Below, one piece after another: positions 3,926 to 54,432 of a DNA stretch of 64,000 bases. Made by a program: the position numbers and the translations under genes. This DNA comes from a virus (taxonomy: Duplodnaviria; Caudoviricetes): IMG/VR virus record IMGVR_UViG_3300028591_000084; one strand, given 5' to 3'. The notes beneath the pieces were generated by a model that worked only from the letters and a program-made list of their open reading frames with translations, was not told where the DNA came from and made no database searches. Numbering within the stretch: the first letter of the stretch is position 1; each line of letters opens with the position of its first letter.

Positions 3926-4378
3926 TTGTTGTATATGAAGCTTTTTAGAGTAATTTTAAAACCCCATATTATTGTCAAGTTTAATTTTAGTGTTTACTGT
4001 GATCATTACTCCACGTACTTTCTCTGTGAAGACGAGCATATACTAAAGGATTCTTCATTGGTATTTAAAACTATTAGTAAGATTGATGAATTATCGCTCG
4101 ATTGTGACTTCACTAACAAGGATTATCGTTTTGAAAAAGTGTGGGAAGAAGGAGAAGTAAGGTGGACTGATGAAAAAGATCATCTTTTAAGGGAGGATCT
4201 TAAACACTTATTTCCAGAAGTAGATATTAGAAAGTTTTTTAACCTTAGCATTATTTATAAAATTCTAAAAGAAAGAAGATCGCATAGCTGTAGCTGTATA
4301 TATAATTATGGTCTCTTACCAAAAGTAAGAAGTATACAAATAACTACGACTATTTTTCTCATTGACAATCAACCTTAA
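3926..4378 (+). CDS. hypothetical protein (probable ATG at 3935)
   Basis: ORF followed by hairpin and T tract. Confidence 0.55.
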   Translation: MLYMKLFRVILKPHIIVKFNFSVYCDHYSTYFLCEDEHILKDSSLVFKTISKIDELSLDCDFTNKDYRFEKVWEEGEVRWTDEKDHLLREDLKHLFPEVDIRKFFNLSIIYKILKERRSHSCSCIYNYGLLPKVRSIQITTTIFLIDNQP

Positions 4379-4434
4379 AGAAATTGCCTGTAACAAGGTA
4401 ATTTTTTTTCAAAACCTATCTCTAAACTCTCCTC

Positions 4435-4450
4435 AAAGCCTTATATATGT
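4435..4450 (+). promoter_or_regulatory. phage promoter motif AAAGCCTTATATATGT
   Basis: Motif AAnnCYTTAnnnnTG recurs upstream of most transcription units. Confidence 0.7.
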
Positions 4451-4525
4451 GACTGAAACGTAGTAAGTTACCTTCCGAAGGATTAGCGGGTTCCGATCCT
4501 AAGGAATGAGAAAAAAAAGGAACCT
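4449..4525 (+). ncRNA. Structured leader RNA motif, copy 1
   Basis: Near-identical to 10366-10440; stems GTRACT/AGTTAC and GGTTCC/GGAACC, possible pseudoknot AGGAT/ATCCT. Confidence 0.55.
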
Positions 4526-4540
4526 GACAACAACAAGTAT

Positions 4541-5434
4541 ATGAGAAACGTTACTATTGTCTACCATAAGGTGGATTTCGACGGACTTGGCAGTGCACTA
4601 ATTGCCAAGGATGTAATGAAGGATTCCGACCATGTAATAGAACTGATCGGTTGGAACTACGGGGATCAGATCCCCAACCTTGACCGGGATGTAGTAGTCC
4701 TGGTTGACATATCATTTCCAAAAGAGATAATGAGAAGTTTAGATCCGAATCGAACAATTTGGATCGACCATCACGTCTCTGCCTTGAAAGACGCAGAGGA
4801 AGGTGGCTACAACAATCTGCCCGGTATTCGCCGGGTGGGAATCGGCGCAATAGCACTGACATGGGAGCTCTTCCATTCTGAGGGGGAACTTCCCGAGGTT
4901 ATCAGTCTTCTGGCCAAGCACGACGTTTGGTTGAAAGACGGGGAATGGGAAAGCAGAACTGTCCCGTTCCAACGCGGATTACGAACTTCATTGGGTATGA
5001 GCCTGGAGAAGCTCGAAAAGATCTGGCCCCAACTCCTCAGGGGCGAAAAAATTGAGGAGTTGATCGACTTAGGCCGTACAATTGATAAGTACGACCAAGA
5101 TCGGTTCAGCGTGGCTTTGAAGCGCTTTAGCTTCGAGGCTAAAATTGGTGATTTGACAGCTATATGCATGATGTCAAACGATTGGGGAGGACATCTGTTC
5201 CGCTCAGTCGAAAGCCAATACCCTGTTCTGGCATGTATCAACGTTGATGCACAGAAAAGCCGGCAGGGTGGAAAGAATATCTATCAGATGAGCCTTTATG
5301 GCACTGACAGATGCGATGCAGATCTTAGCATTATAGCCAAAGCCCATGGCGGCGGAGGACATGCTAGGGCATGTGGGTTCCCCTTGACGGAGGAGGAATT
5401 CATCCATCTCATGACGAGAAGGGAACTCATCTGA
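4541..5434 (+). CDS. DHH/DHHA1 family phosphoesterase
   Basis: YHKVDFDG, LVDIS, WIDHH, GGGGHARACGF. Confidence 0.9.
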   Translation: MRNVTIVYHKVDFDGLGSALIAKDVMKDSDHVIELIGWNYGDQIPNLDRDVVVLVDISFPKEIMRSLDPNRTIWIDHHVSALKDAEEGGYNNLPGIRRVGIGAIALTWELFHSEGELPEVISLLAKHDVWLKDGEWESRTVPFQRGLRTSLGMSLEKLEKIWPQLLRGEKIEELIDLGRTIDKYDQDRFSVALKRFSFEAKIGDLTAICMMSNDWGGHLFRSVESQYPVLACINVDAQKSRQGGKNIYQMSLYGTDRCDADLSIIAKAHGGGGHARACGFPLTEEEFIHLMTRRELI

Positions 5435-6989: not shown

Positions 6990-7033
6990 TGCCTCTTTTT
7001 CTTTTCATCCCGCCTAATCACCTTATTCCTGAT

Positions 7034-8413
7034 ATGAAAGAAATATTAAAATTTATTGGAGAAATAGCAGAAGAATTAGGATTGTCTGCTTATGTTGTTG
7101 GAGGTTATGTCCGTGATGAGATACTTGGACGTAACTCTTATGATATTGATATCCTGGTTGTGGGAAAGGGAGTGAAGCTAGCCGAAGAAGTTGGTAAGAG
7201 AACTAATTCTAAGGTTCTAGTTTTTAAGAATTTTGGAACAGCTCAACTCATCTACCAGGAACAAGTTATAGAATTTGTTGGTGCTAGAAAAGAGTCATAT
7301 CAAAGAGGATCCAGAAAGCCTATAGTTGAAGAAGGAACTTTGGAAGACGATTTAACAAGGCGGGATTTTACAATTAATGCTATTGCCAAATCAATAATGC
7401 CAAGAGATTTTGGAACTATTATTGATTTGTTTGGTGGCCAGGAAGATATTAAACTTGGTATTATAAAATCCCCTACTGATCCTTTAATAACCTTTTCTGA
7501 CGATCCTCTTAGAATGCTGAGGGCTATAAGATTTGCCACAACACTAGGCTTTGAAATAGATCCAACTACTTTTGAAGCAATCAAAAAAACTGTTGATAGA
7601 TTAGATATTATCAGTCCAGAAAGGATTACCACAGAATTATGCAAGATTATGTCATCTAATGATCCTGGAACTGGAATAGATTTACTAAAGGAGTCAGGTC
7701 TTTTAAAGAAGATTATACCGGAACTTGATATTCTTGATACCTCAGATAGTGAATGTGGTCGAGGTCATAAGAATAATTACTGGCACTCTGTTCAAGTCCT
7801 AAGAGGTGTTGCTGATAAGTCTAATTCTTTATGGCTTAGATGGGCAGCGCTTCTTCACGATATAGGTAAAGAGCCTACAAAGAAGTTTATAGGTGGGGAC
7901 GAAGGTTGGTCTTTTATTGGTCATGAGGCTATCGGTGCTGATATGGCTGAGGTCATATTTAGAAGATTGAAATTACCATTGGGAGATACAGTAAAGTATG
8001 TTAAAAAGCTAATCAATCTTCATATGAGACCTGCTTATATTAGTACTAGTGAAATAACAGACTCTGGTGTTAGACGGCTCTTATTTGATGCTGGTGATGA
8101 TTTTGATGATTTAATGATCCTTTGTAGATCTGACTTGACAACAAAGAGAGAGGATAAAAGGGAGAGAATTGAAAAGCACTATGATCAACTCCAAAGTCTC
8201 GTTAGTGATCTTAAAGAAAGGGATCAAAGAAGATTATTCCAACCTTGTATAAACGGAAATGATATTAAAGAGCGCTACGGACTTAGAACTGGAAGACTAG
8301 TGGGTCAACTTAAGAATTTTATTAAAGAAGGAGTTTTAGATGGGAGACTAGAAAACACCAGATCCTGTCTATTTAAAGCGCTGGATGAAGAATGGAATCG
8401 GATAAAGAAATAA
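7034..8413 (+). CDS. cca: CCA-adding tRNA nucleotidyltransferase with HD domain
   Basis: VGGYVRD, DIDI, RRDFTINA, DPLRMLRAIRF, LLHDIGK; ATG at 7034 preferred over GTG at 6989. Confidence 0.9.
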   Translation: MKEILKFIGEIAEELGLSAYVVGGYVRDEILGRNSYDIDILVVGKGVKLAEEVGKRTNSKVLVFKNFGTAQLIYQEQVIEFVGARKESYQRGSRKPIVEEGTLEDDLTRRDFTINAIAKSIMPRDFGTIIDLFGGQEDIKLGIIKSPTDPLITFSDDPLRMLRAIRFATTLGFEIDPTTFEAIKKTVDRLDIISPERITTELCKIMSSNDPGTGIDLLKESGLLKKIIPELDILDTSDSECGRGHKNNYWHSVQVLRGVADKSNSLWLRWAALLHDIGKEPTKKFIGGDEGWSFIGHEAIGADMAEVIFRRLKLPLGDTVKYVKKLINLHMRPAYISTSEITDSGVRRLLFDAGDDFDDLMILCRSDLTTKREDKRERIEKHYDQLQSLVSDLKERDQRRLFQPCINGNDIKERYGLRTGRLVGQLKNFIKEGVLDGRLENTRSCLFKALDEEWNRIKK

Positions 8414-9145: not shown

Positions 9146-9320
9146 ACTAGTAGGAATCTTATTCTGTGGAGCTGGGTTTATATTTTTAGCATTAGGCCTA
9201 TATCTCCTCAGTGTTCATAGTAGAGTTCTTGGGATTGGAGCTGGCTGCTATGTGATATATAAGATTCTCTATCATATTGGATATTATTTGATCTATGGAG
9301 AAGAAAAAGAACAAAGGTAA
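9123..9320 (+). CDS. small membrane protein
   Basis: Two hydrophobic helices. Confidence 0.6.
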   Translation: MKTSWMDKLVGILFCGAGFIFLALGLYLLSVHSRVLGIGAGCYVIYKILYHIGYYLIYGEEKEQR

Positions 9321-9969
9321 ACACTTAGCATTCCTTTTAAGACATGATACCTCTTATCCTTATAGAGAAGATGGTTGGAGAGAGGTTAGCGATTTGGTGA
9401 AGAACCATGGATTTACAAGAGAAGAACTTGAAACCCTTGTTAAAACTGATGAAAAGGGGAGGTATGAATTTGATCTAGAGAAGAGAAGAATAAGGGCCGT
9501 TCAAGGACACAGTATTCCCGGAGTTAAGCCAGATTCTATTATCTTAGCAACACCTCCAACTATTCTATACCATGGAACAAGTAGTAAGTATATTAGTAGC
9601 ATTATGTCAGGTGGCTTAGAGAAAAGAAACAGAAATCATGTTCATCTATCTGAAGATCCTGATACTGCTAGAAAGGTCGGAGCAAGACATGGAGGGGGAT
9701 TTCCTGTCATCATTTATGTTAAAGCAAAAAAGTTTTTTGATGATGGGCATAAGATATTTAAATCTGCCAATGGAGTATGGTTAACAGAAGATTCTATACC
9801 CTATAAAGACTATTGCTTTTTATTACCTGATACCTTAACACTTGGGACATTAAGTTGTGAAGACTGTACAGCGGCTAAATACTGTAGAAAGGAACATTGT
9901 CAAGCAAATACTTCATTTTGTGATGTTCCTGTTTATTATAATGATTTTGAAAACCAGTCAAATCTTTAA
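9295..9969 (+). CDS. kptA: RNA 2'-phosphotransferase Tpt1/KptA
   Basis: LLRH, DEKGRY, IRAVQGHS, LYHGT, RNHVHLS, SANGVWLT. Confidence 0.93.
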   Translation: MEKKKNKGKHLAFLLRHDTSYPYREDGWREVSDLVKNHGFTREELETLVKTDEKGRYEFDLEKRRIRAVQGHSIPGVKPDSIILATPPTILYHGTSSKYISSIMSGGLEKRNRNHVHLSEDPDTARKVGARHGGGFPVIIYVKAKKFFDDGHKIFKSANGVWLTEDSIPYKDYCFLLPDTLTLGTLSCEDCTAAKYCRKEHCQANTSFCDVPVYYNDFENQSNL

Positions 9970-9973
9970 TACT

Positions 9974-10040
9974 GATAAAAGAAGCGAAGTCATATTAACG
10001 GGGGAGATTGTTCGTGATGAATAATCTCTCTTTTTTTATT
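9974..10040 (+). ncRNA. putative small RNA unit (promoter, variable segment, conserved hairpin terminator)
   Basis: Promoter motif 9960-9975; hairpin GAGATTGTTCGTGATGAATAATCTC almost identical to the 52 kb array hairpin. Confidence 0.5.
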
Positions 10041-10048
10041 TTCCCGTT

Positions 10049-10064
10049 AAAACCTTATATATGA
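10049..10064 (+). promoter_or_regulatory. phage promoter motif
   Basis: AAAACCTTATATATGA. Confidence 0.7.
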
Positions 10065-10086
10065 TAAAATTTATTAATTAAAGAAA

Positions 10087-10323
10087 ATGGAAAAAAAGAA
10101 TTTGACTATTTCAGCCTGGGTAACAGCCCCGGCAGAAGTTCAAAAGCATGGCATAAATCGTTATGCCGTAACTTATGACCCCATGATTGGGGTCGCAAGA
10201 TCGGAAGAGCGTAGGCGCTGGGTCGCCACGCTTGGTTCGTTGGCACTGGCAGCTTATGTTGCCAGGAAGGTCTGCCAGAAATGGTTAGACCCTAAAAAAG
10301 AAGAAAACAAAACCGAGGCGTAA
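10087..10323 (+). CDS. hypothetical protein
   Basis: 78 aa ORF between promoter and terminator. Confidence 0.7.
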   Translation: MEKKNLTISAWVTAPAEVQKHGINRYAVTYDPMIGVARSEERRRWVATLGSLALAAYVARKVCQKWLDPKKEENKTEA

Positions 10324-10365
10324 GCCTTGGTTTTTTTTTTATTTTCCCGTTAAAGCCTTACATAT

Positions 10366-10440
10366 GTAACTGAAAGGTAGTAAGTTACCTTCCGAAGGAT
10401 TAATGGGTTCCGATCCTAAGGAATGAGAAAAAAGGAACCT
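10366..10440 (+). ncRNA. Structured leader RNA motif, copy 2
   Basis: Repeat of 4449-4525 directly after promoter 10352-10367. Confidence 0.55.
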
Positions 10441-10455
10441 AAATTAAGTGCTACT

Positions 10456-10563
10456 ATGAAGAGGGCATTGCAATTTTTGGCATCTTTCACCCTGATATAC
10501 ATCGGGGTGTACATAATGCCAACTCCATCCTGTTTAGCAGATGGAAAAAAGGGGGAGGAGTAA
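10456..10563 (+). CDS. small hydrophobic peptide (35 aa)
   Basis: MKRALQFLASFTLIYIGVYIMPTPSCLADGKKGEE; same spacing from the leader motif as the DHH gene. Confidence 0.45.
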   Translation: MKRALQFLASFTLIYIGVYIMPTPSCLADGKKGEE

Positions 10564-10601
10564 CTCCCCTTTCTTATCTATAACTTAATAAACAGTGTGA
10601 C

Positions 10602-10829
10602 ATGAAGAATGAGTATCTGGGTGAGGTCCTTGAAAAAAGACTCGAGGACGTCTCACAAAAAATTAAAATCCTTCATCTCGTAATAGAGAGTAGAAGGGAG
10701 AAAATGGCCAATTTAATATGGCCAATAAAGGTCCTAGAAAACTGGGACATAGAACGAACTCTTGAGAAGGAATATAATCGCCTTCTTCAAGAGAAACAAA
10801 GTTTGAAAGAAACCTTAGCAATTTGCTAG
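10602..10829 (+). CDS. hypothetical protein
   Basis: 75 aa ORF. Confidence 0.55.
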   Translation: MKNEYLGEVLEKRLEDVSQKIKILHLVIESRREKMANLIWPIKVLENWDIERTLEKEYNRLLQEKQSLKETLAIC

Positions 10830-10875
10830 GATTTCTTTTTTTTCTTTTTGTTCCGCCTAAACCTTTATTATTGAT

Positions 10876-11421
10876 ATGAATTTTAGAATAGCTTATTTTA
10901 TTAGTGATTCAGATCCAACCTGTTTAGAAATGGCTGTTGAATTGCCAAGATTATTATTAAATAAGCGAGGCCAGGAGATGGTACTGATTAAAAGTCCTCT
11001 AAGCGACTATACATACTATCCCTTTTTTGGTAATGATGATACTGAGCCTGAAAAATGGTTAGAAAAGTGGTTAAGGCCTGATAAAAAACAGGAAAAGATA
11101 GAATTAGGGCCTACTACTGTTCGTCTTTATGTTTTAAAGCCATTTGATGAGGGTTATAACGGTAATTTTAAAGTATTATCATCAGGGATTATAAAAAGAA
11201 TATTTGAAAAATGTTCAGCCAAGGTTCCATTGAATCTTCAAGTACCTGGATCTCTTTATAGTATTCCTGTTGAAGACCCACTTATAATCAATAATCCTCA
11301 TTCTACAATTTTGATAGAGGAGAATGACATAGAGTTTGAAAATGTAAAGAAATCGCCATTTACTCCCGAAATCTTCCTCACAATTAAATACTTACTAAGA
11401 TATGGCACGAACAAAATATAG
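10876..11421 (+). CDS. hypothetical protein
   Basis: 181 aa ORF immediately after a promoter motif. Confidence 0.65.
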   Translation: MNFRIAYFISDSDPTCLEMAVELPRLLLNKRGQEMVLIKSPLSDYTYYPFFGNDDTEPEKWLEKWLRPDKKQEKIELGPTTVRLYVLKPFDEGYNGNFKVLSSGIIKRIFEKCSAKVPLNLQVPGSLYSIPVEDPLIINNPHSTILIEENDIEFENVKKSPFTPEIFLTIKYLLRYGTNKI

Positions 11422-16288: not shown

Positions 16289-16383
16289 AAACTAATAAAA
16301 GGTGGAGATCCTATGATGGGCCTCCCCTTCTTTTTTTTTCAATTCAATAAATTACTACTAGGATCCCCTTGTATTCTTATTAT

Positions 16384-16563
16384 TGGAGAATTAGAAATTT
16401 AATTTGATATTATCTATTCATATTTATTCCATGGGGATCCATCCTGTCTGTGAAGATAAGGTGGTGCACGTATTAGTTAGTATCGTTTTGTTTTCATAAT
16501 ATACTTGTTGTTGTTTTATTTTTTAATTCTCTAGGTAGTGGTCTGTGAAGATCGCTACTTTTC
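16384..16563 (+). ncRNA. putative two-module antisense small RNA
   Basis: Promoter-like motif ~16370-16386; two GTCT-GTGA-AGAT hairpins; 16499-16514 is the exact reverse complement of 4527-4542. Confidence 0.6.
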
Positions 16564-16624: not shown

Positions 16625-17950
16625 ATGAAAAAGAAGACAAAAGAAAAAGTGGAATTCTTCAATACTGTAAGAGACGGTATTAAAAGTGGGCTGTTCGTAG
16701 AGGAGCCCGGAAGAGTGAAGAGGGGCGAAATAGTTCCTCTTATTGAAAAACTAGACCAATACAACGGTCTAGAGGTAAAGAGAACCCACAGAGATTGTTG
16801 GAATCTGTGGGCAATAATAAAGAAGAACTTAAAGCTTCTTCGAGTCCAGAATGCATACATACTGCCCAACGAGGCAGTAGCACCTGCAGCAGTACCTGCA
16901 GTAGAGAGTAATTATATCTTGCCCGCCAGCCCAGATAAGATGTTGGCGGAGGCAAGACGGAGATTCAGGCAGCGGCATCCTGAATGTCATAAGGCATTTA
17001 AGATCGAAAGAGGAATTTCTTTCAAGGAAGCCGAATTCGACTTGATTTGGTTGATGGTTTCTGACAGGGTTACAATAGGCAAAACCCTTTGGGCTGTCCA
17101 GGACGCCCACCCGAAAGGATCTGCAAAGACCTGGAATGGATGGGAGAGAATAATCGAGAAGCTAAGTTTCTACAATATCAACAGATTTTCGATTATTAGA
17201 CAGGGCAACAAAAAATACATAAGGATCGAAGGAACTATCCAGGATGCCTTGATCTTGCAGAGGGATCTTTCGAAAGTAGGAAAGAAGCTTCTCAATAAGA
17301 ACTATGAGGTAATTAAAGACCTCAAGCCTGTCGAGAAGCAGGATGATTTTATCGCTCCCACTACAGCATTAAAGAGTGGTATTGACGATAGGGACGGGTT
17401 CATCCTGTTAGTTCTTACAAAACTGGCAGAGAATGAGGGGGTAGGAATTGATGAGGCTAGACAAATTTTAGCCTTGAATCGGTACTACCCGGTGAATTAT
17501 AGTAGCGGGGAAATAAAGGACCTCGTTGCCCGTTTCCCCGAGTATCTTACCATCAACAGTCTGGATGGCAAAATACAATCTGTCATTCAGAACAGATGTC
17601 CAGAAGAATTGAAGAAATTTAGCCCTTATAACAGGGCAATGGAAATCACGCTAATAATCTCATCAAAGCTCCCTTTAGAGGAGATTGAGAAGGTTATCGG
17701 AAAAGTAGTGGTGCACTATTCTTCCGAGGAGGTAATGGTATGTACTTCCTCATTAAGTGAAGGACGAGACGACATAATTAAGCTAGCAAGGCTGAAAGAA
17801 AAGCTTCGATCAACAGACAAGATAGTGGGTCTTCACAGGCCAGAACTGTTGGTAGACGAGATGGATCGTCTCCTGAGGGTGGCCGTAATGCCAACCCAAT
17901 TATTAGGGCGATCGAGAGAGGCATTGATAGAAGCTGCCGTTAGAGTTTAA
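16625..17950 (+). CDS. hypothetical protein
   Basis: 441 aa ORF with GC-richer codon usage. Confidence 0.75.
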   Translation: MKKKTKEKVEFFNTVRDGIKSGLFVEEPGRVKRGEIVPLIEKLDQYNGLEVKRTHRDCWNLWAIIKKNLKLLRVQNAYILPNEAVAPAAVPAVESNYILPASPDKMLAEARRRFRQRHPECHKAFKIERGISFKEAEFDLIWLMVSDRVTIGKTLWAVQDAHPKGSAKTWNGWERIIEKLSFYNINRFSIIRQGNKKYIRIEGTIQDALILQRDLSKVGKKLLNKNYEVIKDLKPVEKQDDFIAPTTALKSGIDDRDGFILLVLTKLAENEGVGIDEARQILALNRYYPVNYSSGEIKDLVARFPEYLTINSLDGKIQSVIQNRCPEELKKFSPYNRAMEITLIISSKLPLEEIEKVIGKVVVHYSSEEVMVCTSSLSEGRDDIIKLARLKEKLRSTDKIVGLHRPELLVDEMDRLLRVAVMPTQLLGRSREALIEAAVRV

Positions 17951-22668: not shown

Positions 22669-23449
22669 GGGAGATAGAGGTAAATGTAATAAATATTATA
22701 AGAACTTTTCTAAGCGACGTAAATGGATCAATGAGAAATATGGTGGTACAAAAATAGGACATAGGAAATTACTAAGAGCTTTAAATTCCTATGAAGATTG
22801 CCACTATCGTCCTTATATTAATATGCGGAAGATAGAGAAATTCCTATTAAAGAGAGTAGGGCATCCAATTGAAGAGGTAGCTGAAGATTTTGTTAAGAGG
22901 ATGAAATTAGAAAAATGCTTACTTGTATCAAATCCTATAAGATACTTCTATTCAAATTGCTTATTTGTACTACCACCTAGTGGGTATATATCTCTAAATT
23001 ACTTCTATATTAGTAAACCACGTAGTAGGAAAGGTCAAGTAATAGCACGAAGGATCAGATATAATAAATTTTGGATCAATCCAGAAACTATGACTCTAGA
23101 GTTTGGAGAAAATCCGAATTATATTAGTAGAAGTTCGGAACTAAACTATGATGTCAGAAAAGCCCCAAAAAGAATAGTAGAGTATAATGATAAACCAATA
23201 CATAGGGGTAAAGAGAATGGATTCTTTACTTCTATTGGTAGGTTCTATTATTTTCTTTTGGGGTTTGATTCTAAGATCTTAGGCCCAGATGATATTTATG
23301 CCATTAATACTAGGGCTTTTAATGATCCGGACGATAAACTGTACTATTTTATAAAACGGCATAATTTGAAGAGGGTAATTTTAGCAGGAGGACAAAAATA
23401 CTTAGATAATGGAGACATGTGTTTTGTTATTCCTTTCAAATCCCCCTAA
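22655..23449 (+). CDS. hypothetical basic protein
   Basis: 264 aa ORF. Confidence 0.65.
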   Translation: MLDFRGDRGKCNKYYKNFSKRRKWINEKYGGTKIGHRKLLRALNSYEDCHYRPYINMRKIEKFLLKRVGHPIEEVAEDFVKRMKLEKCLLVSNPIRYFYSNCLFVLPPSGYISLNYFYISKPRSRKGQVIARRIRYNKFWINPETMTLEFGENPNYISRSSELNYDVRKAPKRIVEYNDKPIHRGKENGFFTSIGRFYYFLLGFDSKILGPDDIYAINTRAFNDPDDKLYYFIKRHNLKRVILAGGQKYLDNGDMCFVIPFKSP

Positions 23450-23469
23450 ATCCTTATCGTTGTAAAGAT

Positions 23470-23938
23470 AGACTAGTAGCTCAGCCGGACAGAGCAACAG
23501 CCTTCAGCTCAAAGTAGGGCTAGCTTTATTTCCTAAATATATGATAAATTGGGAAAAGAGAAGGCCGACTTCGAGAAACTGATTCTTGAGGAAGGTAAGT
23601 CCTATGAGCCTATCTATAGGAAAAATATATAACTGTTCTGAATCTATAAGATTAGGAATGGCGATAGATATTACTATAGATATAGGAGCGTACTCAGGAA
23701 ACTGATGATACTGAAGATCCCCTAAACGACGAAAGCTAAGTCAGAGATGATATGCCAACGACGTGCCAAGCTTGAAAAAGAAAGTGCATAGAGACTATAC
23801 AGGGATCACCTACGTCAAAAAATTGATATGGTTATGAAATAGTCCAGACCACAAACAAATGTCTGTTGATATTTGGCAGTGAAAACTGTAGTTGGTAAGC
23901 TAAGCTGTGGGTCATGGGTTCGAATCCCATCTAGTCTA
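23470..23938 (+). tRNA. tRNA-Arg(TCT) split by a group I intron (exons 23470-23504 and 23900-23938); CCA not encoded
   Basis: Acceptor AGACTAG/CTAGTCT, D arm GCTC/GAGC with A20, anticodon stem ACAGC/GCTGT, joined loop CTTCTAA, T arm ATGGG-TTCGAAT-CCCAT. Confidence 0.85.
23505..23899 (+). mobile_element. group I intron in the tRNA anticodon loop, with decayed ORF
   Basis: P3 GATCCC/GGGATC, P7 AGAGACTA...AAATAGTCC, IGS AGGGCT, terminal G. Confidence 0.85.
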
Positions 23939-24005
23939 CACGATTAGAGATTAGAGATGAATAATCTCTTTTCTTTTTTTGTCCCTTTAATTCTTTATTA
24001 TTGAT

Positions 24006-24611
24006 ATGGGAACAAATTATTATGCGAGGATTATACCTACGCGAGAAAAGAAGAATAAACTAATAGAGCTTATTGAAAATGATGAATTTAATGCAATCAA
24101 AGACACTGTTGACCTTTATTACCGCTCTCCCAACTCTTATAATTGGAGGGGTGGAGAGATACATTTGGGGAAGCAGTCAGGCGGTTGGAAATTTCTTTGG
24201 AATCCGAATTGGTGGAAAGTAAATGAAGGATCCTATGACTCTAAAATACATAAGTATATTGATAAATGGGTTGTTCGAAAATATTATGATTTAAATAAAA
24301 ATTCAATTCTAAGATTCCTCCAACGCCCAGACATTAGACTCTTTGATGAGTACGGTGATGAGGTTAACAATAAAAAAGAGTGGTTTGACGATATAATCAA
24401 AAGAGATTCTGGAACTTGGTGCGGAAAACCACTATTAGACAATAAGCTCTATTTTGAAACTACTGAAGGGGGTAAAGATGAATGGAGGAGAAGTATATTC
24501 CGGGTACGAAGTGAAGAGAAACAGTTCTGGGAAGATCAAGGCTTTGATGCTGAATACTTAGATTTCTACTCTGATGGCCTTAGATTCAGTAGTTCGTGCG
24601 AGTTTTCATAA
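24006..24611 (+). CDS. hypothetical phage protein
   Basis: MGTNYY...IHLGKQSGGWKF motif; 201 aa. Confidence 0.7.
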   Translation: MGTNYYARIIPTREKKNKLIELIENDEFNAIKDTVDLYYRSPNSYNWRGGEIHLGKQSGGWKFLWNPNWWKVNEGSYDSKIHKYIDKWVVRKYYDLNKNSILRFLQRPDIRLFDEYGDEVNNKKEWFDDIIKRDSGTWCGKPLLDNKLYFETTEGGKDEWRRSIFRVRSEEKQFWEDQGFDAEYLDFYSDGLRFSSSCEFS

Positions 24612-28284: not shown

Positions 28285-31043
28285 TTCATTTCAATTTGAG
28301 TTACACCACTTTCATTTAGATTAAGCTTAAGAGATTTATTATTAAATGCAGGTATAGACTCCATATGACTACTTATCAATGTCAGTCCAATATCCATCTG
28401 TGCTATCATATCAAGCACAACATCATGGTTACCAGCATCTAAGTGCTTCAAGAACTCATCCATAATTAAGAGTCCCATCCTTGTAACAACTTTACTTAGG
28501 AAGTCGATATCAAGAAGGGTTCTTTGACCATCAGAGCAGTTAACGTATCTTACATTATTACCACTCAAATTATAATATGATTCAAGATTGAGATGTTCTT
28601 TATTTCTAAAGGTACTCTCGACGACCTCATACTTAATCATATTATCGCTGAATTGATTAGCTAACTTAGTCATAATTTCCTTATAAATTAAGCCAGTAGA
28701 ACCGGTCAGCTTTATATATGTGTTATAAGCTTCCACAGTCTCTCTCATCTTTTCTAATTCAGCTTCACAAGTTTCAATAGTCTTTAATGCTTGCTGTTTA
28801 TCTCTATTAAGAGAATTCCATTGACTCCATATTGAAAGATCATAATCAGCCTTTCTCATATTCTCCAAGAATCCACTAGGGAGTTCAACTTTCTCAGGCT
28901 CTTCACCAATGCACGATAAGGCCTGTTCAATTTCTTTAATTTTTCTAATCTCCTCAGTCTGTTCTCTTGTTAGTCTGGCACCCTCTGATTTCTCTGCCAT
29001 CAGCTTAGACACCTCTTGATTATAAGAAGTCAGTGTTGTTCTACAACCAGAATCAATCTCAGCCTTATCTTGAATTCCATAATTCCAGAACTCATTATAT
29101 AAAGTATTCTGAACTTCTAAGAGACTATTAATCTTTTCGCTTAACTCAGCTTTATGTGCCTCAAGATGCTCATCAGATTTAATTGGTTGTTTACAAGTCG
29201 GGCAAAACTTAACTTCACTCAGTCGTTGTCTATCAAAGTATAATCTCCTACCCTCATTTTTTATTTCCATCAGCTTCGTATATCTCTCAGTAATCCAGTT
29301 AATCTTATCTTGAATAACTTGAATATCTTGATCAATAACATCATCTGATCTTTGTTGTCTGAGTTTAGGTCGAATAACACTATTTAGACGATCTTGGCAG
29401 GCCTCCTTCTGAGCTTGAAGATTAGCAGTTCTAGTTACAAAGTCATTATAAGAGAACCATTTCTCCTGTAAAATTCTCCCTGCTTCTCTTTTATTTATCA
29501 GGTCAACTTCTGACTCTTTAGGTAAGTCTAATGATCCTAATCTACCATCAATATACTTTAGGAGTTCGTTAGTCTTATCTCTTTCTTCTTTCCAATTACC
29601 AGCGTTATCAAAATAGTTAGATAATAGCTCTTGAGCCTGTTCATTATAGGCATCAATTCTATCCATCTTATAAAATTTACTAATAATCTCGCTTTTTCTT
29701 TCTGGAGTTATATCACCAATTAATTTAGGGTGATCAGAGTCGAAGAAATAGACATCCATATAATCAATGAAGGGGAATCTCAAGTGCATTTCCTTGATAA
29801 ACTCCTGCTTACCACCAAATCTTTGCGGCTCCCCATTAATCCAAAACCCATACCTCTTTGAACCTCGCTGAATTCTATACTCATTACCTTGATATAGGAA
29901 ATCAACTTCGGCCCAACACTCTTTAGTTCCAAATTGAATCAAATCTTTAGGGTGTGGATTTTCTAAGAAGGCATACTTGATGGCACTAAGAAGACTAGAT
30001 TTACCTGAACCATTCTCTCCAGTTATTAAAACTCTATCGTGATCCCCAAAGTATAACTCACATTCTTCTATACTTCTCCAGTTTCTACAATAAAACCTAG
30101 TTATTACAAAGTTAAAGTCAACCTCTTTAGCATCAATATCTTTAATACTCTGAAGGACCTCACCATGAACTTTCTCTAGGTGATGAGCCTTTATTATATT
30201 ATCGATCAGATTACCTATTTCTTCCCAGGCAGGTACATTGATAGATTTAAGACCACCAGCAATACTCTGATTCTGGGGCTTATAAACCCACCAGGTCAAA
30301 TTATCTTCATCAAATCCTTCTTTATCCCTGTCTTCTGTATAAACAAATTTCAAGAGATTATCATGAGGGTTAAGATCAATTCTCTTCCACTCATGTCTTT
30401 GAGGATCAAGAACAATAGCAGTTTGTGTAGGAGAATCGGAGATCTTACATTGCTGAGGAACTCCAATACTAACATACTTCCCTAATTGTGATGGTTTATG
30501 AATATCACCACAAATTGCTAAGTCAAACTTTGATTCGTCCAAATATTGATTGAGAAATTTATCTTCTGGAGTATAACAGATTGTAGCATGTGTAAACAAA
30601 ACATCTACTTTGTCAGGAATCCAGGTAAGATCAAACTCAGGTCTCCAATTATAGAAGCCAATACTACAGCCATCAATATTAATGATAGTACGATCAGCAT
30701 AGTGGAGATTATCGGGAAGCATGACAGATAAAACTGAATCAGTCATCTCCGAATTTATACCTTTATTATCTTGATCGTGATTACCCCAGATAATATAACC
30801 TTCCCTAAAGTGACTCATCAAAGTATCAAGGAACAGTTTGACTTCGTGCTGGACATAAGGTCTGACGAGGAACTTTTCAATCGTATCACCCGCCAAGACG
30901 ATTATGTCACAGCCTTCATTCTGTCCTGCCTCAATTATATTCTGACATACCGTTCTACTCTGGTATAGTCTAAATTTCTCTGTTGGGTTTCTTTGTGGAT
31001 AATCATGAATATGAATATCTGCTACTGCTAAGATCTTACTCAT
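28281..31043 (-). CDS. fused Mre11/SbcD nuclease - Rad50/SbcC ATPase
   Basis: DIHIH, AGD, GNHD, GDIH; Walker A GENGSGKS; CPTC zinc hook; CSDGQ signature; LIMDE. Confidence 0.9.
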   Translation of the reverse strand: MSKILAVADIHIHDYPQRNPTEKFRLYQSRTVCQNIIEAGQNEGCDIIVLAGDTIEKFLVRPYVQHEVKLFLDTLMSHFREGYIIWGNHDQDNKGINSEMTDSVLSVMLPDNLHYADRTIINIDGCSIGFYNWRPEFDLTWIPDKVDVLFTHATICYTPEDKFLNQYLDESKFDLAICGDIHKPSQLGKYVSIGVPQQCKISDSPTQTAIVLDPQRHEWKRIDLNPHDNLLKFVYTEDRDKEGFDEDNLTWWVYKPQNQSIAGGLKSINVPAWEEIGNLIDNIIKAHHLEKVHGEVLQSIKDIDAKEVDFNFVITRFYCRNWRSIEECELYFGDHDRVLITGENGSGKSSLLSAIKYAFLENPHPKDLIQFGTKECWAEVDFLYQGNEYRIQRGSKRYGFWINGEPQRFGGKQEFIKEMHLRFPFIDYMDVYFFDSDHPKLIGDITPERKSEIISKFYKMDRIDAYNEQAQELLSNYFDNAGNWKEERDKTNELLKYIDGRLGSLDLPKESEVDLINKREAGRILQEKWFSYNDFVTRTANLQAQKEACQDRLNSVIRPKLRQQRSDDVIDQDIQVIQDKINWITERYTKLMEIKNEGRRLYFDRQRLSEVKFCPTCKQPIKSDEHLEAHKAELSEKINSLLEVQNTLYNEFWNYGIQDKAEIDSGCRTTLTSYNQEVSKLMAEKSEGARLTREQTEEIRKIKEIEQALSCIGEEPEKVELPSGFLENMRKADYDLSIWSQWNSLNRDKQQALKTIETCEAELEKMRETVEAYNTYIKLTGSTGLIYKEIMTKLANQFSDNMIKYEVVESTFRNKEHLNLESYYNLSGNNVRYVNCSDGQRTLLDIDFLSKVVTRMGLLIMDEFLKHLDAGNHDVVLDMIAQMDIGLTLISSHMESIPAFNNKSLKLNLNESGVTQIEMK

Positions 31044-48992: not shown

Positions 48993-49096
48993 TCCTTAGG
49001 AGAGTATAATGCTCTCCTTTTCTTTTTATTTCGAGAAAAAAAATAAAAAAAGAAGTTATTCATCACGAACCACTTCTTTCTTCCCTTAAAACTCTC

Positions 49097-50488
49097 TTAT
49101 TTGATTATTCTGATTATTTTGATAGAAGGCTTGTTGTTGAGAGTACAATCTTTGACTTCAAACCAGTTTCTAATATCAGAGCTTTGTGGATTTCTGATAT
49201 ATCCCATTTGTTTGTATATGGTTCTAAGTTTTTTCTCTAGATCTTTCTTAATTATTTTAGTTCCAGGCGAAAATAGTGGCCAAATTAAATGGCCCATCAT
49301 TTCTTTTATTCCTATACCATTAATCCATTCGATTCGATACACATTGTTTAACTTTCTATCTTTTGTTCTCACTATTTTTATATTATACTCTTCAAAATCC
49401 ACTAATTGATCTATTCCGGTATAGTAATTTAGGGATCTAAAGGCGTTATTAGCCCTGTCTATAAGATCTATCCTACTCATTGAATCTCCTGGTTTTAAGA
49501 ATTTTTTAAGTTTTTCTTCCAGGCATTTTCTTTGCTGTTCTTTTATGGTTCCAGGTATAGCCTCATCTCTTATACCCAGGATCTTTATACACAGTACCGG
49601 TCTTTTATTATTTAGTGTTTTTCTTTTTATTTTTTCCAAGATGAAGTATTTATCTAGCTCTCCTAATCTTGGTTTTTGTGGATAATCAACTTCTGAGTAG
49701 ATATTGGCTAAGATATTAAAAATTGTAGTTTGTGGAATACAGTCATTAATTTTCAATCTCAGAATTAGTTTCTCTCTTATTAAGTTGAAATCGTTAAATA
49801 CTTCTAGTCTATAGTTTTTATAGAGTATTCTAATATTATAATCTTTTTTTATAATTTCTTCTGTGTTATAATATTGGAGGACATCTTTATATCTTTTATC
49901 AGTTATATGTGTAATTAGATCTAGTATTTCCTTATCATCTTTATATTTCACTGCATATCTTAAGATCGTTGTGAAGTCATAGGATGAAATTTTACTTATT
50001 TTTTCATATACTTTTTTAATTTTCCCACCAGGTAACTTCCCTCCGTATTGGTCAAGGAAGTAGATTATATTATCAGCTTCATTAGGAAACAGAACTTTTA
50101 TTAATTTTTTATAATTTTCTTCTGTTTGCTGAATATTATAGTAGAGGATCCTTCCATATATCTCCTCTTCTGTCATTCTGTCCCTAAATGCGATCTTAAT
50201 AGCATTCATAATAGGCTCTGGATTATAGGACGTATCAGAAGTTTTAATATCAGGCAGATTACTACAATCTGTTTTTAGAAATTTTTCAACTTCATTCGGC
50301 CCTATAAATCCATCCCCTGTTCTGCTGAAGAGAATATTTATTTTATCGTAAGTGTCATCAGGCAAATCATATTCTTTCCAAATAATCTCTAGATTTGGAT
50401 TAAATTTTGTGATTAGTCTGAGTTCTCTTTCATCCTTAAGTTTTTCAAGCAAAAAACTTGAATCACTAAGTTTTCCAAGTACTATCAT
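49097..50488 (-). CDS. protein with three copies of the helicase C-terminal domain
   Basis: Last repeat FSPGTKIIKKDLEKKLRTIY...SDIRNWFEVKDC aligns with the helicase C-termini. Confidence 0.65.
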   Translation of the reverse strand: MIVLGKLSDSSFLLEKLKDERELRLITKFNPNLEIIWKEYDLPDDTYDKINILFSRTGDGFIGPNEVEKFLKTDCSNLPDIKTSDTSYNPEPIMNAIKIAFRDRMTEEEIYGRILYYNIQQTEENYKKLIKVLFPNEADNIIYFLDQYGGKLPGGKIKKVYEKISKISSYDFTTILRYAVKYKDDKEILDLITHITDKRYKDVLQYYNTEEIIKKDYNIRILYKNYRLEVFNDFNLIREKLILRLKINDCIPQTTIFNILANIYSEVDYPQKPRLGELDKYFILEKIKRKTLNNKRPVLCIKILGIRDEAIPGTIKEQQRKCLEEKLKKFLKPGDSMSRIDLIDRANNAFRSLNYYTGIDQLVDFEEYNIKIVRTKDRKLNNVYRIEWINGIGIKEMMGHLIWPLFSPGTKIIKKDLEKKLRTIYKQMGYIRNPQSSDIRNWFEVKDCTLNNKPSIKIIRIIK

Positions 50489-50840: not shown

Positions 50841-51907
50841 TTGTTTTTAGCTATTATAGCATCAGGACTAAGAATAATTGTTTCTACTTCACCAATAAAT
50901 TCTTTTAGGGTTTTCTTTCCAGTATAAGACATAGCAGACTTAAGATAGTCAGTCATATTAGTAGTCCAACTTTCAAGAGTGTATTCAACATTAAGAAATA
51001 CTCTTATTCCTTCTGCAGTTTTTGTCTTAACTCCAAACAAAGCAGTTTGACCTTCTCTACTAGCCATTCCATAGAATGTTGCAGTAATATCACCCAAGAA
51101 TATCTTTTTATTATTAAAGGTGCCGTACCAAGCCTTCCCCTCTCTGTGAATATCTGTAAGGTCTGATAACTCAGTTTCTATTGGTAGAGAAAACCATTCA
51201 TCACTATTACACGTTTTTGGCGCAGCAGATTCAAGCGCCTTAGCAAACACACTGCCAATCATAACGTAATCAGCACCAAGGGCCAAGGCTTTAATAACAT
51301 CTGCATAACCTCTAACTCCTCCATCAGCAATAATCTTAGTATTACCTTTGATTGATTTCTTAATCTCGGCTGTCTCTTTAATTAGAGATCCCATAGCATA
51401 GTGAACTCCCAGATTACTACTACTAATACACCCTCTTCCTGAGCCTATTCCAAGTCGAATATAATCAACTCCGGCTTCATTAGCAATTCGATAGGTTTCA
51501 GGATTAGCAATATTACCAGCCATTATAATAAGTTCGGGACAAATTTCTTTTGCTTTTTTGATATAGTCGTATAGAATTTTCATATGTCCGTTAGCAATAT
51601 CAATCAGAACCTTACCCTTCCTCGGTTTAAAGTCTTTAAATTCCTCCAAAGATAAAGCAATCCAGGTTCCCTTATCGAACTGTCTCATTCTAAGTTCAAG
51701 TGCATAGGTTCTAGGAATGATTGGAATAATCCCAACTTTCTTATATTCCTCAATATTCTTCAAGCCAACAACAGTATCCATTGGGGCTGTAAAGATAGGT
51801 AAGGATCCTTCTTCAGTTAAGACACTACAATCACTTCTATGCTCTATCTCACTGATGATTGCAGGTACAATAGAGACATCATTGTATGAAAACTTAATAT
51901 TACCCAT
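50837..51907 (-). CDS. guaC: GMP reductase / IMPDH family
   Basis: APMDTV, DIANGH, GIGSGRGC, IADGG, FYGMAS, SAMSY; no CBS domains. Confidence 0.8.
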   Translation of the reverse strand: MGNIKFSYNDVSIVPAIISEIEHRSDCSVLTEEGSLPIFTAPMDTVVGLKNIEEYKKVGIIPIIPRTYALELRMRQFDKGTWIALSLEEFKDFKPRKGKVLIDIANGHMKILYDYIKKAKEICPELIIMAGNIANPETYRIANEAGVDYIRLGIGSGRGCISSSNLGVHYAMGSLIKETAEIKKSIKGNTKIIADGGVRGYADVIKALALGADYVMIGSVFAKALESAAPKTCNSDEWFSLPIETELSDLTDIHREGKAWYGTFNNKKIFLGDITATFYGMASREGQTALFGVKTKTAEGIRVFLNVEYTLESWTTNMTDYLKSAMSYTGKKTLKEFIGEVETIILSPDAIIAKNK

Positions 51908-51984
51908 AAAATAGTAGTTTATATTCAACTTTAAGGGTAGGGAGGGAGGATAGAGGCATTTTTTATTGAAGTGGACTCTGTATT

Positions 51985-52500
51985 AAAAAAAAGAGAGAGA
52001 CTATCCATCACGAACAATCTCTCTTTAAAAAGGAAAACATTTAATAAGAGGTCCATAATTGATTTTTCTCTCGCATATAAGGTTTTGATGGGAAAATAAA
52101 AAAAGAGAGACCATTTATAATAAATAGCCTCCCTCTTGACAAAATCAGGACTTGGTTCTCAAGCCATAATTAAGGTATTGGGTTGAGTGTAAATAAAAAA
52201 AAGAGACTATTCATCACGAACAATCTCTTTGTGAAACCAATTAAATCTTTGCCAATCCAATGTAAAAGGTCAATTGACATTTAGTCATATATAAGGTTTT
52301 GATGGGAAAATAAAAAAGAGAGAGACTATCCATCTCGGACTATCTCTCTACAAAATAATAAATATGTCAATAAATCATATATAAGGTTTTGATGGGAAAA
52401 TAAAAAAGAGAGACTATCCATCTCGGACTATCTCTCTTAGCGAAAAAAAAATAAAATATGGAAAAAAATTATCTACAATTTCAATTTTAAGGTATTGAGG
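51985..52500 (-). repeat. array of five promoter-variable segment-hairpin terminator units (putative small RNAs)
   Basis: Repeated CCCATCAAAACCTTATATATG or CAATACCTTAA promoters and GAGAT.GT.CG.GATG.ATAGTCTC hairpins with T tracts; no ORFs. Confidence 0.8.
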
Positions 52501-52572: not shown

Positions 52573-54432
52573 ATGGTTAACGAAAGTAGTAATTATTTTG
52601 ACTTAGTATTAGCTATGTTTAACCAATACCTCTTTCAGGAGTGTAAGTCTAACATTGATGACATTATGTATGCTTATCAGGTTACTCCCTCGACAAGTGA
52701 TAATGCCTTCGTGGAACAATTGCTTAGTGCAATTAAGAATTACAGCCTAGATAGTATTGGTTATCCCTTGTTTCAGAGTATTTTTAGTAGGACCGGTAAG
52801 ACGCAGGCCGAATCAACTGAAATACTAAATAAGATTGTTGAATATAAAAAATACACTAAGGATCAGATTGCACCGTTCCGAACTTTGATTCGTGATATTG
52901 TAGCTCATTCTTATATTATTCGAGCTAATAATCTATATGGTGATAGTCCTAGTGAATTTATTAGTTATCTCAAGAATACTACATTTAAGTCGTCTGAAGA
53001 GGACTATTTTGTGACGACGAAATTTAAGGATCTTGATATTAACACTATAATAGCAGAAAGAGCTGACGGTGGCATCCCCAGTGCTTTTAACTGGATTAAT
53101 CAAACTTTTAGACCAGAATGTTGTTATCCTACCTCTGGTTTGATGTGTATTGCTATGCCACCAGGATGTATGTCGGGAGATACTGAGGTATTCCTAGCAG
53201 ACGGGACTGTAGATACTTTAGAGAATCTATATAAGAAGAAGGTTGAAGGTATTACAGTTTATTCTTGTGATGGAGAAACATCAAAAGTCTCCGTTGCTGA
53301 AAATTGTCAGATTTCTAAGTATGTGAGTGAGTGGTATGTTGTGGAGGTTGATGGTAAAAGAGAATATAGAGTAACTGAAAATCACCCACTATTATTAATG
53401 GGTGGGGAATGGAAAAGAGCTGATAAGTTAAAGATTGGTGATACTTTAATGTCATTCAATATTAAGTCAGCAGATAAAACAACTCACACAATCACTAATG
53501 TTTATCTTGAAAAATTAGATACTCCTCATCCAGTATATGATCTAGTAAATGTAGCTCTTTATCATAATTATGCAGTTAAGTTTGATGATGAGTCTGGATT
53601 CTTCAGTCATAATACAGGTAAGACTCTGTTTTGTATGCAGGAGTGTTTAAATATGTGTTTGATGGGTAAAAAGTGTCATTATCTCTGTATGGGTGATATG
53701 ACAGAAGAGGATTTTATTATTAGAATGTCGGCTCAGTATTTAGGGATCCCATTTTATGAGGTTAAACGTAATATCCTTCAGTGTTACAATGAGTTAGCGA
53801 AAGCGATAGGTGATAATTTGTCTATTTCCTGTATTCCTGCCTCAGCAATGACGGTAGATGACTATGTTGAAGAGATGAAGAATAAGCCTTATGATGTTTT
53901 GTTTATTGATTATGATAGTCAATTTAAATCAAATGTGGCTACAGAATCTATGTACTTAACTTATGGCGATATCTATGCCAAGCTATCAGAACTGACAGTT
54001 TCATATAAAAAGCTTGTTTTCATCCTAGCCCAACCAATGAAAGCTGCTTGGAGTTTACCCGTTATCGAGATGGATCAAGTTGGTGAATCTGCCCGAAAGA
54101 TTCATACCGTCGATTGGTGCTTAACTAGGGCTAGACTTCCAGAGAATCTCAATGGTTTAGGAACTAGTAAAATTGTTAAGTCTAGACGAGGTGAGGAACA
54201 AGTTATAGATTATAATATCCGTTTATCTAATGGCAGATTTAAGTCAGTTCCAAAGAGCGTGTTTGAGAAATTGGCTGAGATAAAGGATAAGCAAGAGTTT
54301 AAGGAGGCTGAGATTGATCATTTTATTGAGTCTTATTATAGAATCAATAAGGAAATTCAGTCAGATATTAAAAAGAAAACAACAGCACCAGGGTCAAGTT
54401 CTGGAAAGGATGCTTTGCCTTGGGAAAATTAA
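52573..54432 (+). CDS. dnaB: DnaB-like replicative helicase containing an intein
   Basis: P-loop MPPG|TGKT split by the intein; LFIDY, ILAQP, KSRRG. Confidence 0.85.
   Translation: MVNESSNYFDLVLAMFNQYLFQECKSNIDDIMYAYQVTPSTSDNAFVEQLLSAIKNYSLDSIGYPLFQSIFSRTGKTQAESTEILNKIVEYKKYTKDQIAPFRTLIRDIVAHSYIIRANNLYGDSPSEFISYLKNTTFKSSEEDYFVTTKFKDLDINTIIAERADGGIPSAFNWINQTFRPECCYPTSGLMCIAMPPGCMSGDTEVFLADGTVDTLENLYKKKVEGITVYSCDGETSKVSVAENCQISKYVSEWYVVEVDGKREYRVTENHPLLLMGGEWKRADKLKIGDTLMSFNIKSADKTTHTITNVYLEKLDTPHPVYDLVNVALYHNYAVKFDDESGFFSHNTGKTLFCMQECLNMCLMGKKCHYLCMGDMTEEDFIIRMSAQYLGIPFYEVKRNILQCYNELAKAIGDNLSISCIPASAMTVDDYVEEMKNKPYDVLFIDYDSQFKSNVATESMYLTYGDIYAKLSELTVSYKKLVFILAQPMKAAWSLPVIEMDQVGESARKIHTVDWCLTRARLPENLNGLGTSKIVKSRRGEEQVIDYNIRLSNGRFKSVPKSVFEKLAEIKDKQEFKEAEIDHFIESYYRINKEIQSDIKKKTTAPGSSSGKDALPWEN
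53167..53613 (+). mobile_element. mini-intein (149 aa) in the DnaB Walker A motif
   Basis: CMSGDT start, VTENHP block B, VYDL...HNY, terminal SHN then +1 Thr; no endonuclease domain. Confidence 0.92.

Follow-up and report, generated by a model that had tools for sequence, protein, structure and literature searches.

The subject of this analysis is a protein-free stretch at positions 51985-52500 of a 64,000-nucleotide (nt) piece of DNA from the IMG/VR virus record IMGVR_UViG_3300028591_000084 (Duplodnaviria; Caudoviricetes), the whole of which is referred to below as the window. The phage is an AT-rich jumbo phage with a GC content of about 34%, and its window encodes RNA-polymerase beta-type domains, a SbcCD-like nuclease, an IMPDH/GMP-reductase-like enzyme and a DnaB-like helicase with an intein; the IMPDH-like protein is also encoded on a contig of 311,995 bp. 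The genes of the latter two enzymes delimit a gap of 640 bp, the IMPDH-like gene reading away from it on the minus strand (ATG at 51907) and the helicase gene on the plus strand (from 52573), and this gap houses an array of five short units, labelled A to E. As the IMPDH-like gene has a promoter of its own, the array is not required to drive it. Three further phages serve for comparison, namely a 305-kb relative with a 69% identical helicase (IMGVR_UViG_3300045988_177552; G001), a 353-kb relative with direct terminal repeats that is rated 100% complete (IMGVR_UViG_3300031992_000005; G002), and L127, the sister phage of G002. No close cultured phage was recovered from INPHARED, where the IMPDH gene gave the sole match and the array was unmatched. 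A search with the IMPDH-like protein returned 80 IMG/VR loci, none of them syntenic at the array site; two apparent terminator runs among these loci proved to be coding sequence and were rejected.

Anatomy of the five-unit array

Inspection of the minus strand recovers all five tandem units that the original prediction had placed in this gap, each complete with promoter box, body, hairpin and U-tract (Table 1). Its statement that the region has no open reading frame (ORF) likewise stands in substance, the array being overlapped only by chance ORFs of at most 42 amino acids. The units follow one another at spacings of 88, 119, 96 and 110 nt. All five hairpins qualify as intrinsic terminators, with folding energies of -11 to -16 kcal/mol and at least six T within the next 9-10 nt, and folding z-scores of the whole units range from -2.5 to -3.3. 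Several of the hairpin pairs are G·U, so the helix is possible only in RNA from the minus strand. A repeat finder groups the hairpins into one family (D1) and the T-runs with the promoters that follow them into another (D2; 92-100% identical). Three copies of the composite module of hairpin, T-run and promoter lie in the array and a fourth at 10004-10065, with identities of 90-100%.

The individual units show further connections. The promoter box of unit B is 94% identical to the promoter module before ORF 10087, and the body of this unit is predicted to be unstructured. The core of the unit D box, CCTTAATTATG, also precedes a gene-less unit in G001 at 198480. The body of unit E recurs identically in contigs of two other samples, both of which break within that unit.

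Table 1. Coordinates of the array units, the adjoining features and related elements elsewhere in the window.
Feature	Position	Strand	Basis or remark
Unit A promoter box CCTCAATACCTTAAAATTGA	52481..52500	-	fits window-wide consensus CC..A..CTTA-N4-TGA; recovered by unit scan
Unit A body, 42 nt, U-rich, predicted unstructured	52439..52480	-	sequence, folding
Unit A terminator hairpin, GNGAU family, loop GAGAU	52406..52438	-	U-tract to ~52397
Unit B promoter box CCCATCAAAACCTTATATATGA	52375..52396	-	repeat family D2
Unit B body, 25 nt	52350..52374	-	sequence, unit scan
Unit B terminator hairpin, identical to that of unit A, plus U-tract	52319..52349	-	25-mer, folding, model
Unit C promoter box, identical to that of unit B	52285..52306	-	sequence, repeat family
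Unit C body, 54 nt, weak internal hairpin	52231..52284	-	folding, unit scan
Unit C terminator hairpin, GNGAU family, loop GUGAU, plus U-tract	52200..52230	-	25-mer, folding, model
Unit D promoter box CCCAATACCTTAATTATGG	52164..52182	-	sequence, unit scan
Unit D body, 28 nt	52136..52163	-	folding, unit scan
Unit D terminator, different 17-bp hairpin with UUA loop, outside the GNGAU family, plus U-tract	52103..52135	-	
Unit E promoter box CCCATCAAAACCTTATATGCGA, deviant 3' end	52071..52092	-	sequence, repeat finder, unit scan
Unit E body, 46 nt	52025..52070	-	folding, unit scan
Unit E terminator hairpin (52024-51994), GNGAU family, loop GUGAU, plus U-tract	51985..52024	-	25-mer, folding, model
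Own promoter of the IMPDH/GMP-reductase-like gene	51925..51946	-	sequence; ATG at 51907
DnaB-like replicative helicase gene adjoining the array	52573-54432	+	intein: Intein_splicing and PT-HINT matches, residues 206-347
GNGAU-family hairpin terminating a protein gene (ORF 49097-50488)	49049..49079	-	one clear window exception
Solitary relative outside the array	9953..10065	+	25-mer, unit scan, model
Other gene-less promoter-to-terminator unit, ~185 nt, GUGA-tetraloop hairpin	16376-16561	+	model R1, E = 7e-4

Three apparent leads on the content of the bodies were set aside. Micro-peptides were rejected, as the ATGs within the promoter boxes open frames of only 2-15 codons which are inconsistent among the units. 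A similarity between bodies A and B (73% over 33 nt) reflects low-complexity T-rich sequence and was not used as evidence. Finally, body A was compared with the end of a Cas12a repeat; only GTAGAT is common to the two and the stem is absent, so the likeness was judged a coincidence.

A promoter box shared with protein and tRNA genes

The motif at the head of each unit had been taken for a phage promoter, and its use elsewhere bears this out. A box of the form CC(C)nTTAAnn(C/T)CTT(T)A-N4-TGA precedes at least 15 window genes when the 100 nt upstream of every long ORF are listed, often leaving nearly no leader, and its core, CTTATATATG, is found 25 times in G001 as against a single occurrence of the reversed control. 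Additionally, transfer RNA (tRNA) genes in G001, G002 and the contig L137 have their 5' ends 5-10 nt downstream of such a box, a distance which implies that transcription starts just after the box. Promoters of the sigma-70 type are not in excess (90 sites against 80.6 ± 9.8 in shuffled sequences).

A covarying hairpin that marks gene-less units

Four of the five array hairpins share the sequence motif that had been claimed for them, and the fifth, that of unit D, is built on a different stem. Units A, B, C and E belong to one family, having a box some 25-85 nt upstream, the family hairpin, a U-tract and no ORF, and unit D differs. A degenerate 25-mer, GAGAKWGTYCGWGATGRATAGTCTC, picks out these four hairpins and a further one at 10004-10028(+), as against 0.00 matches in shuffled sequences. 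The family layout comprises about eight covarying basal base pairs, a mismatch, an invariant G·U, three base pairs, a GNGAU pentaloop and a U-tail. A search anchored on the pentaloop gathered 28 distinct copies from the window, G001, G002 and the sister phage. In their gapless alignment 92.3% of the paired cells can pair, compared with 72.8% in column shuffles and 35-55% with slid partners, values to be read with the preselection of the copies in mind, since a minimum of 10 of the 13 pairs and a GNGAU loop were required of each, which inflates percent pairing and loop invariance by construction. Two features are unaffected by this selection: 12 of the 13 pairs display compensatory changes on both sides, and the fourth pair from the loop, G10·U22, is a G·U in every one of the 28 copies. 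The fifth position from the loop, 9·23, is mismatched in 22 of them.

Among G002 terminators of -9 kcal/mol or better, the motif is present in 16 of the 32 that close gene-less promoter-proximal units and in none of the 75 that lie just after an ORF (Fisher p = 1.4e-10); the corresponding counts in the window are 4 of 8 and 1 of 21 (Fisher p = 0.013). The idea of a common 3' handle is upheld to the extent that the hairpin behaves as a class-specific 3' module, which covaries and marks gene-less units. A covariance model, R1, matches six window copies, all of them its seeds (among these the unit A hairpin, at 44.6 bits), and two sequences of lower score, at 16532-16561 and 4377-4408. Applied to 81 other loci totalling 711 kb, it matches nothing except a piece of G002, from which it follows that the motif is clade-specific. 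Judged from these sequence patterns, the hairpin is a specific RNA motif as opposed to a generic terminator.

The solitary copy on the plus strand illustrates how the module is deployed outside the array. Here a promoter-like box overlapping the stop codon of ORF 9295-9969 is followed by 25 nt, the hairpin (10001-10031) and its U-tract, and the element ends with the same promoter module as is found in units B and C, which in this instance drives ORF 10087. The hairpin at 10001 is thus preceded by an ORF end as well as by a promoter-like box.

Recurrence and turnover in related jumbo phages

A scan of IMG/VR for two CTTATATATG boxes placed 65-95 nt apart returned 71 loci, nearly all on contigs of 200-400 kb. 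The locus recovered from G002 is a seven-unit array of the same architecture as that in the window, with hairpins such as GAGGATCAGTCCGAGATGGATAGATTCTC that share their 16-nt apex, letter for letter, with window units A and B. Across its whole genome this phage carries about 27 gene-less units in six arrays. Their bodies measure 24-74 nt, and between the units stand tRNA genes and GC-rich structured RNAs that each possess their own promoter and terminator. G001 has single units only, one of which displays the same hairpin apex and stands beside a tRNA-Arg unit.

The units are subject to gain and loss. Three pairs of G002 bodies located in different arrays are paralogous. Further, the arrays of G002 and its sister L127 are near-identical except for a 109-nt indel, which corresponds to exactly one unit and has its breakpoints inside the repeated promoter box; this event is documented for these two phages, not for the window's own. 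Apart from this, one body differs by an indel of 7 nt, the loop varies at its N position and one stem shows a U-G to C-G change; the bodies are otherwise nearly unchanged. Short-read assemblies break in the array, and other contigs of the same phage end inside it. Exact hairpin patterns gave 0 matches in IMG/VR and the unit C body gave 0 in the JGI metagenomes; a metagenome scan for tandem apices yielded two G002-like contigs, and the other loci inspected from it were rejected as unrelated repeats, coding repeats or, in one case, a CRISPR array.

Several other elements came to light in the same surveys. The GC-rich structured RNAs within the G002 arrays, about 80-140 nt long, lie at 7030-7123(-), 102736-102830(+), 103035-103140(+) and 217700-217880(-); each has its own promoter and T-run, and none matches an Rfam family. 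About 60 loci on IMG/VR jumbo contigs of 200-400 kb (L109-L177) have CTTATATATG promoters in tandem, two or three per locus and 68-100 nt apart, without clear terminators. After them come a conserved leader, GTAATA...ATTACCT(C/A)AAG, and a hairpin; in G001 this leader is found at 200453 and 200941. Three JGI metagenome contigs of 26-29% GC (L196, L203 and L206) contain unrelated AT-rich tandem repeats of about 100 bp, each including TTGACA...CGAGATGGATAG, which resemble arrays of sigma-70-type promoter units and were matched only via a shared 12-mer.

Complementarity of the bodies to translation starts

The original prediction proposed that the bodies are programmable antisense RNAs which block A-rich translation starts of host or phage mRNAs, the hairpin serving as a handle. 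Its premise of a host that dispenses with Shine-Dalgarno motifs is sound: such motifs are found at 3 of 69 window genes, as against 13.6% of background positions, so that start regions are A-rich and accessible, and the hosts of these phages, which lack the motifs, are probably Bacteroidota. The start-like complements are also present, as the reverse complements of bodies A and B read AAAATAAAAT-ATG-GAAAAAAA and AAATAATAAAT-ATG-TCAATAA, that is, the bodies contain anti-AUG contexts. However, CAT is not in excess over ATG in the bodies, the counts being 3 and 3 in the window and 28 and 19 in G002, which we judge to be no enrichment.

Searches for targets in the phage's own DNA covered the 64-kb window, about 20% of its genome. 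The longest exact complements of the five bodies elsewhere in these 64 kb measure 10-14 nt and are within the range of dinucleotide shuffles: the 13 nt of unit A are equalled in 153 of 300 shuffles, and the 14 nt of unit C, equalled in 16 of 300, lie inside the SbcC-like gene, not at a start codon. The best duplex energies at 76 window start regions are likewise within the shuffle range, and starts fare no better than gene interiors. In G002, the longest matches of 27 bodies against 452 start windows sum to 306, compared with 307.4 ± 6.2 for shuffled bodies (p = 0.63), and against the complete genome to 345, compared with 359.6. Two individual matches are longer. Body A is perfectly complementary over 18 nt to the leader and ATG of a G001 gene (29161-29178), but this match is low-complexity and A-rich, and has no orthologous site in the window. 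Additionally, within the separate gene-less unit at 16376-16561, the segment 16499-16514 is an exact 16-nt complement of 4527-4542, which covers the leader and the AU of the ATG of ORF 4541-5434; 14 of 500 shuffles do equally well, and the same segment also pairs with the start region of the adjacent gene at 16625. Since neither complements nor duplex energies surpass dinucleotide shuffles in the window or in G002, antisense silencing of translation starts is not supported, and we regard it as an unlikely explanation of the array, to which the two longer matches still lend a low probability.

Candidate small-RNA genes and competing explanations

The reading that we favour, at a probability of roughly one half, is that the array comprises five independent small-RNA genes of a family specific to this jumbo-phage clade, with a shared 3' hairpin and with targets that are probably in the host. 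Transcription would begin a few nucleotides downstream of the phage-type promoter box, proceed through an AU- or U-rich and mostly single-stranded body of 25-54 nt and end at the intrinsic terminator, giving predicted products of about 60-95 nt. The terminator, a conserved RNA module in every unit but D, may double as stop signal and as a common element for stability and recognition, probably bound by a protein. The variable 5' part would then provide specificity in trans by pairing with host rather than phage RNA or, alternatively, might titrate a single-strand RNA-binding factor of the host. The repeated modules of terminator and promoter also serve as substrates for recombination and so permit fast duplication, loss and replacement of units.

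Several observations weigh against this picture. The near-identity of the modules could stem from very recent duplication instead of selection, and the hairpin also terminates one or two protein genes of the window and is hence not exclusive to gene-less units. No target was found within the window, nor in the G002 genome for the units of G002. The closest full relative, G001, has no array at the syntenic site, and the window bodies have no similarity to those of G001 or G002 beyond that seen in shuffles, two points which would also fit neutral spacer DNA. Further, no Rfam 15 family reaches its gathering threshold in the array or its surroundings, and the same search of the G002 arrays retrieves tRNAs only.

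A more specific version of the small-RNA proposal, which we hold to be rather improbable, would make the GNGAU hairpin the handle of an undescribed RNA-guided system of the phage. In it a phage or host protein would load the RNAs, and the bodies would act as guides against transcripts of the host or of competitor phages, for instance at A-rich start regions, with the guide repertoire being renewed by recombination of cassettes as opposed to spacer acquisition.

The principal competitor is an explanation without any RNA function, modelled on the promoter-early stem-loop (PeSL) cassettes documented for T4-type phages (Arbiol et al. 2010, PMC2839356; Comeau et al. 2014, PMC4122927). According to it, the units are regulatory cassettes, made of duplicated terminator-plus-promoter modules like those in the hyperplastic regions of such phages, whose bodies are leftover or stuffer DNA and whose transcripts, if any, are by-products, so that the array, if relevant at all, would be a platform for recombination and insertion of gene cassettes. 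The presence of the same hairpin, T-run and promoter module around ordinary small ORFs at 10000-10900, the one-unit indel between G002 and its sister with breakpoints in the promoter box, the lack of conservation of bodies between phages and the breaking of short-read assemblies in the array are all consistent with it. However, in G002 the motif is missing from protein-gene terminators and is carried by half of the gene-less units, the reverse of the pattern expected of gene-flanking modules; the approximately 27 units there retain intact promoters and terminators and stand among genes for tRNAs and structured RNAs. Moreover, simple recombination of two modules should yield one module and not a module, a body of 25-54 nt and another module, and the invariant G·U together with the covariation indicates selection at the level of RNA. 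We consider this account unlikely. The related suggestion that the units are cassettes emptied by gene loss survives in part as regards its mechanism, as units are indeed gained and lost by recombination between repeated modules.

Two further explanations were weighed. The array could be a cis-acting ladder of regulated terminators, at which a phage protein binding the hairpin apex would relieve termination later in infection, so that the five promoters read through and boost the IMPDH operon, the bodies being spacers. Protein-binding RNA sites typically show the kind of sequence conservation seen in this terminator apex, including its invariant G·U and its mismatch, and both the window array and two of the G002 arrays run in the same direction as the gene that follows. 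Yet the IMPDH-like gene is served by a promoter of its own, some arrays have a tRNA or structured-RNA unit as their last member, a switch has no need of five to seven repeats and no candidate antiterminator was identified, which together leave this option with little probability. Less probable still is a DNA-level element, such as a transcription-primed replication origin beside the replicative helicase gene. Such an origin would suit the divergent, AT-rich gap with its several promoters next to the DnaB-like helicase gene. It sits poorly with the scatter of six arrays over the G002 genome, with the relative that has a 69% identical helicase but no array at that site, and with the G·U pairs and covariation, which act at the level of RNA and on one strand only; the GC skew merely tracks gene orientation. 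We regard it as very improbable.

Similarities to and differences from known systems

The candidate small-RNA genes can be compared with several known arrangements. As in PeSL cassettes, short modules of a stem-loop terminator and a promoter are repeated in a phage genome, as is the case in the window, and serve as crossover points for whole-unit indels between close relatives, as seen between G002 and L127. PeSLs, however, flank protein ORFans, whereas the array modules enclose non-coding bodies of 25-54 nt and flank ORFs only at 10000-10900; PeSLs use host sigma-70-type promoters with -35 and -10 elements, whereas the array uses the clade's own CC..TTAA..CTTA-N4-TGA box; and in the present family the apex is conserved in sequence and, in G002, avoids protein-gene terminators. 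Clusters of tRNAs and small stable RNAs in phages are similar in being protein-free stretches, within a large virulent phage, that encode several small RNAs, and the units of the relatives are interleaved with tRNA genes. In the T4 tRNA region, which includes the species 1 and 2 RNAs, the products are co-transcribed and processed, unlike the array, where promoter and terminator are repeated unit by unit and the bodies lack a tRNA-like fold.

In their predicted architecture, the units resemble trans-acting bacterial small RNAs such as GibS and BTnc231 of Bacteroides, which likewise have their own promoter, a single-stranded 5' region and a 3' intrinsic terminator. They differ from these in their tandem arrangement and shared GNGAU hairpin, and neither a conserved seed nor a phage target was found. 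The Rfam matches reach only 15-18.5 bits against thresholds of 80-115 and are at chance level. Among eukaryotic viruses, a cluster of individually transcribed small RNAs is exemplified by the RNA polymerase III microRNA cluster of bovine leukemia virus (BLV; PMC12498455): several small-RNA genes stand in line, each with its own promoter and terminator. As transcription machinery, RNA biogenesis and host domain all differ, this is an analogy only.

The logic of the units had also been described as CRISPR-like, and conserved and variable segments do alternate in them as in CRISPR arrays, phage RNA anti-CRISPRs or solitary repeat units, with a hairpin that could be a handle. A CRISPR array consists of regular identical repeats and uniform spacers and is transcribed from one leader. 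The comparison fails on the body lengths of 24-74 nt, on the promoter and terminator in every unit and on the hairpin, which is not a repeat, CRISPR or other, in any of 185,579 species genomes of bacteria and archaea. Mimicry of a CRISPR repeat, as in an RNA anti-CRISPR, was rejected on the same ground, none of the matches in these genomes lying in an array; the pattern GTYCGWGATGRATAGTCTC was met with six times, each time singly and at scattered sites in unrelated metagenome-assembled genomes, where our own estimate for chance is about 35. A limited literature search found no published description of such arrays.

The biology of non-coding RNA in jumbo phages is largely uncharted, a 2026 review mentioning on this subject only expression in phiKZ (PMC13282480). 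The family described here can be recognised computationally by its clade-specific promoter, its fast-evolving body and its covarying hairpin, in which the G·U never varies and the loop is GNGAU. It accounts for dozens of mini-genes in each genome, in phages whose hosts do without Shine-Dalgarno motifs. If expressed, these would be the densest small-RNA batteries known in phages and a tractable model of how viral regulatory RNAs diversify by module-mediated recombination, with the hairpin as a concrete bait for a partner protein. Even as by-products, the units would extend the PeSL principle beyond T4-type phages.

Other structured elements

Additional structured elements are present in the window. 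Between the unit E terminator and the IMPDH promoter lies a motif, AATACAGAGTCCACTTCA (51962-51979, minus strand), which is identical at 23 of 23 positions in G001, where it occurs at 155755-155777, 198458 and 221263 and recurs beside a small-RNA unit. The gap at 23449-24006, which holds no ORF, contains at about 23900-23970(+) a tRNA-like T-arm (GGGTTCGAATCCC) and an acceptor-like end, which immediately precede a hairpin and the ORF 24006 promoter; this element was called by neither ARAGORN nor Rfam. In the region 10000-10900(+), three or four terminator-plus-promoter modules bracket ORFs of 78 and 75 amino acids and GC-rich segments, in the manner of PeSL-like mini-cassettes. Finally, two near-identical, GC-richer structured leaders of about 75 nt lie at 4440-4530 and 10360-10440 on the plus strand, directly downstream of CTTAyATATG promoters. 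Their sequence reads GTRACTGAAAnGTAGTAAGTTACCTTCCGAAGGATTA..GGGTTCCGATCCTAAGGAATGAG, one copy precedes ORF 4541-5434, and the pair is a candidate cis-regulatory RNA.

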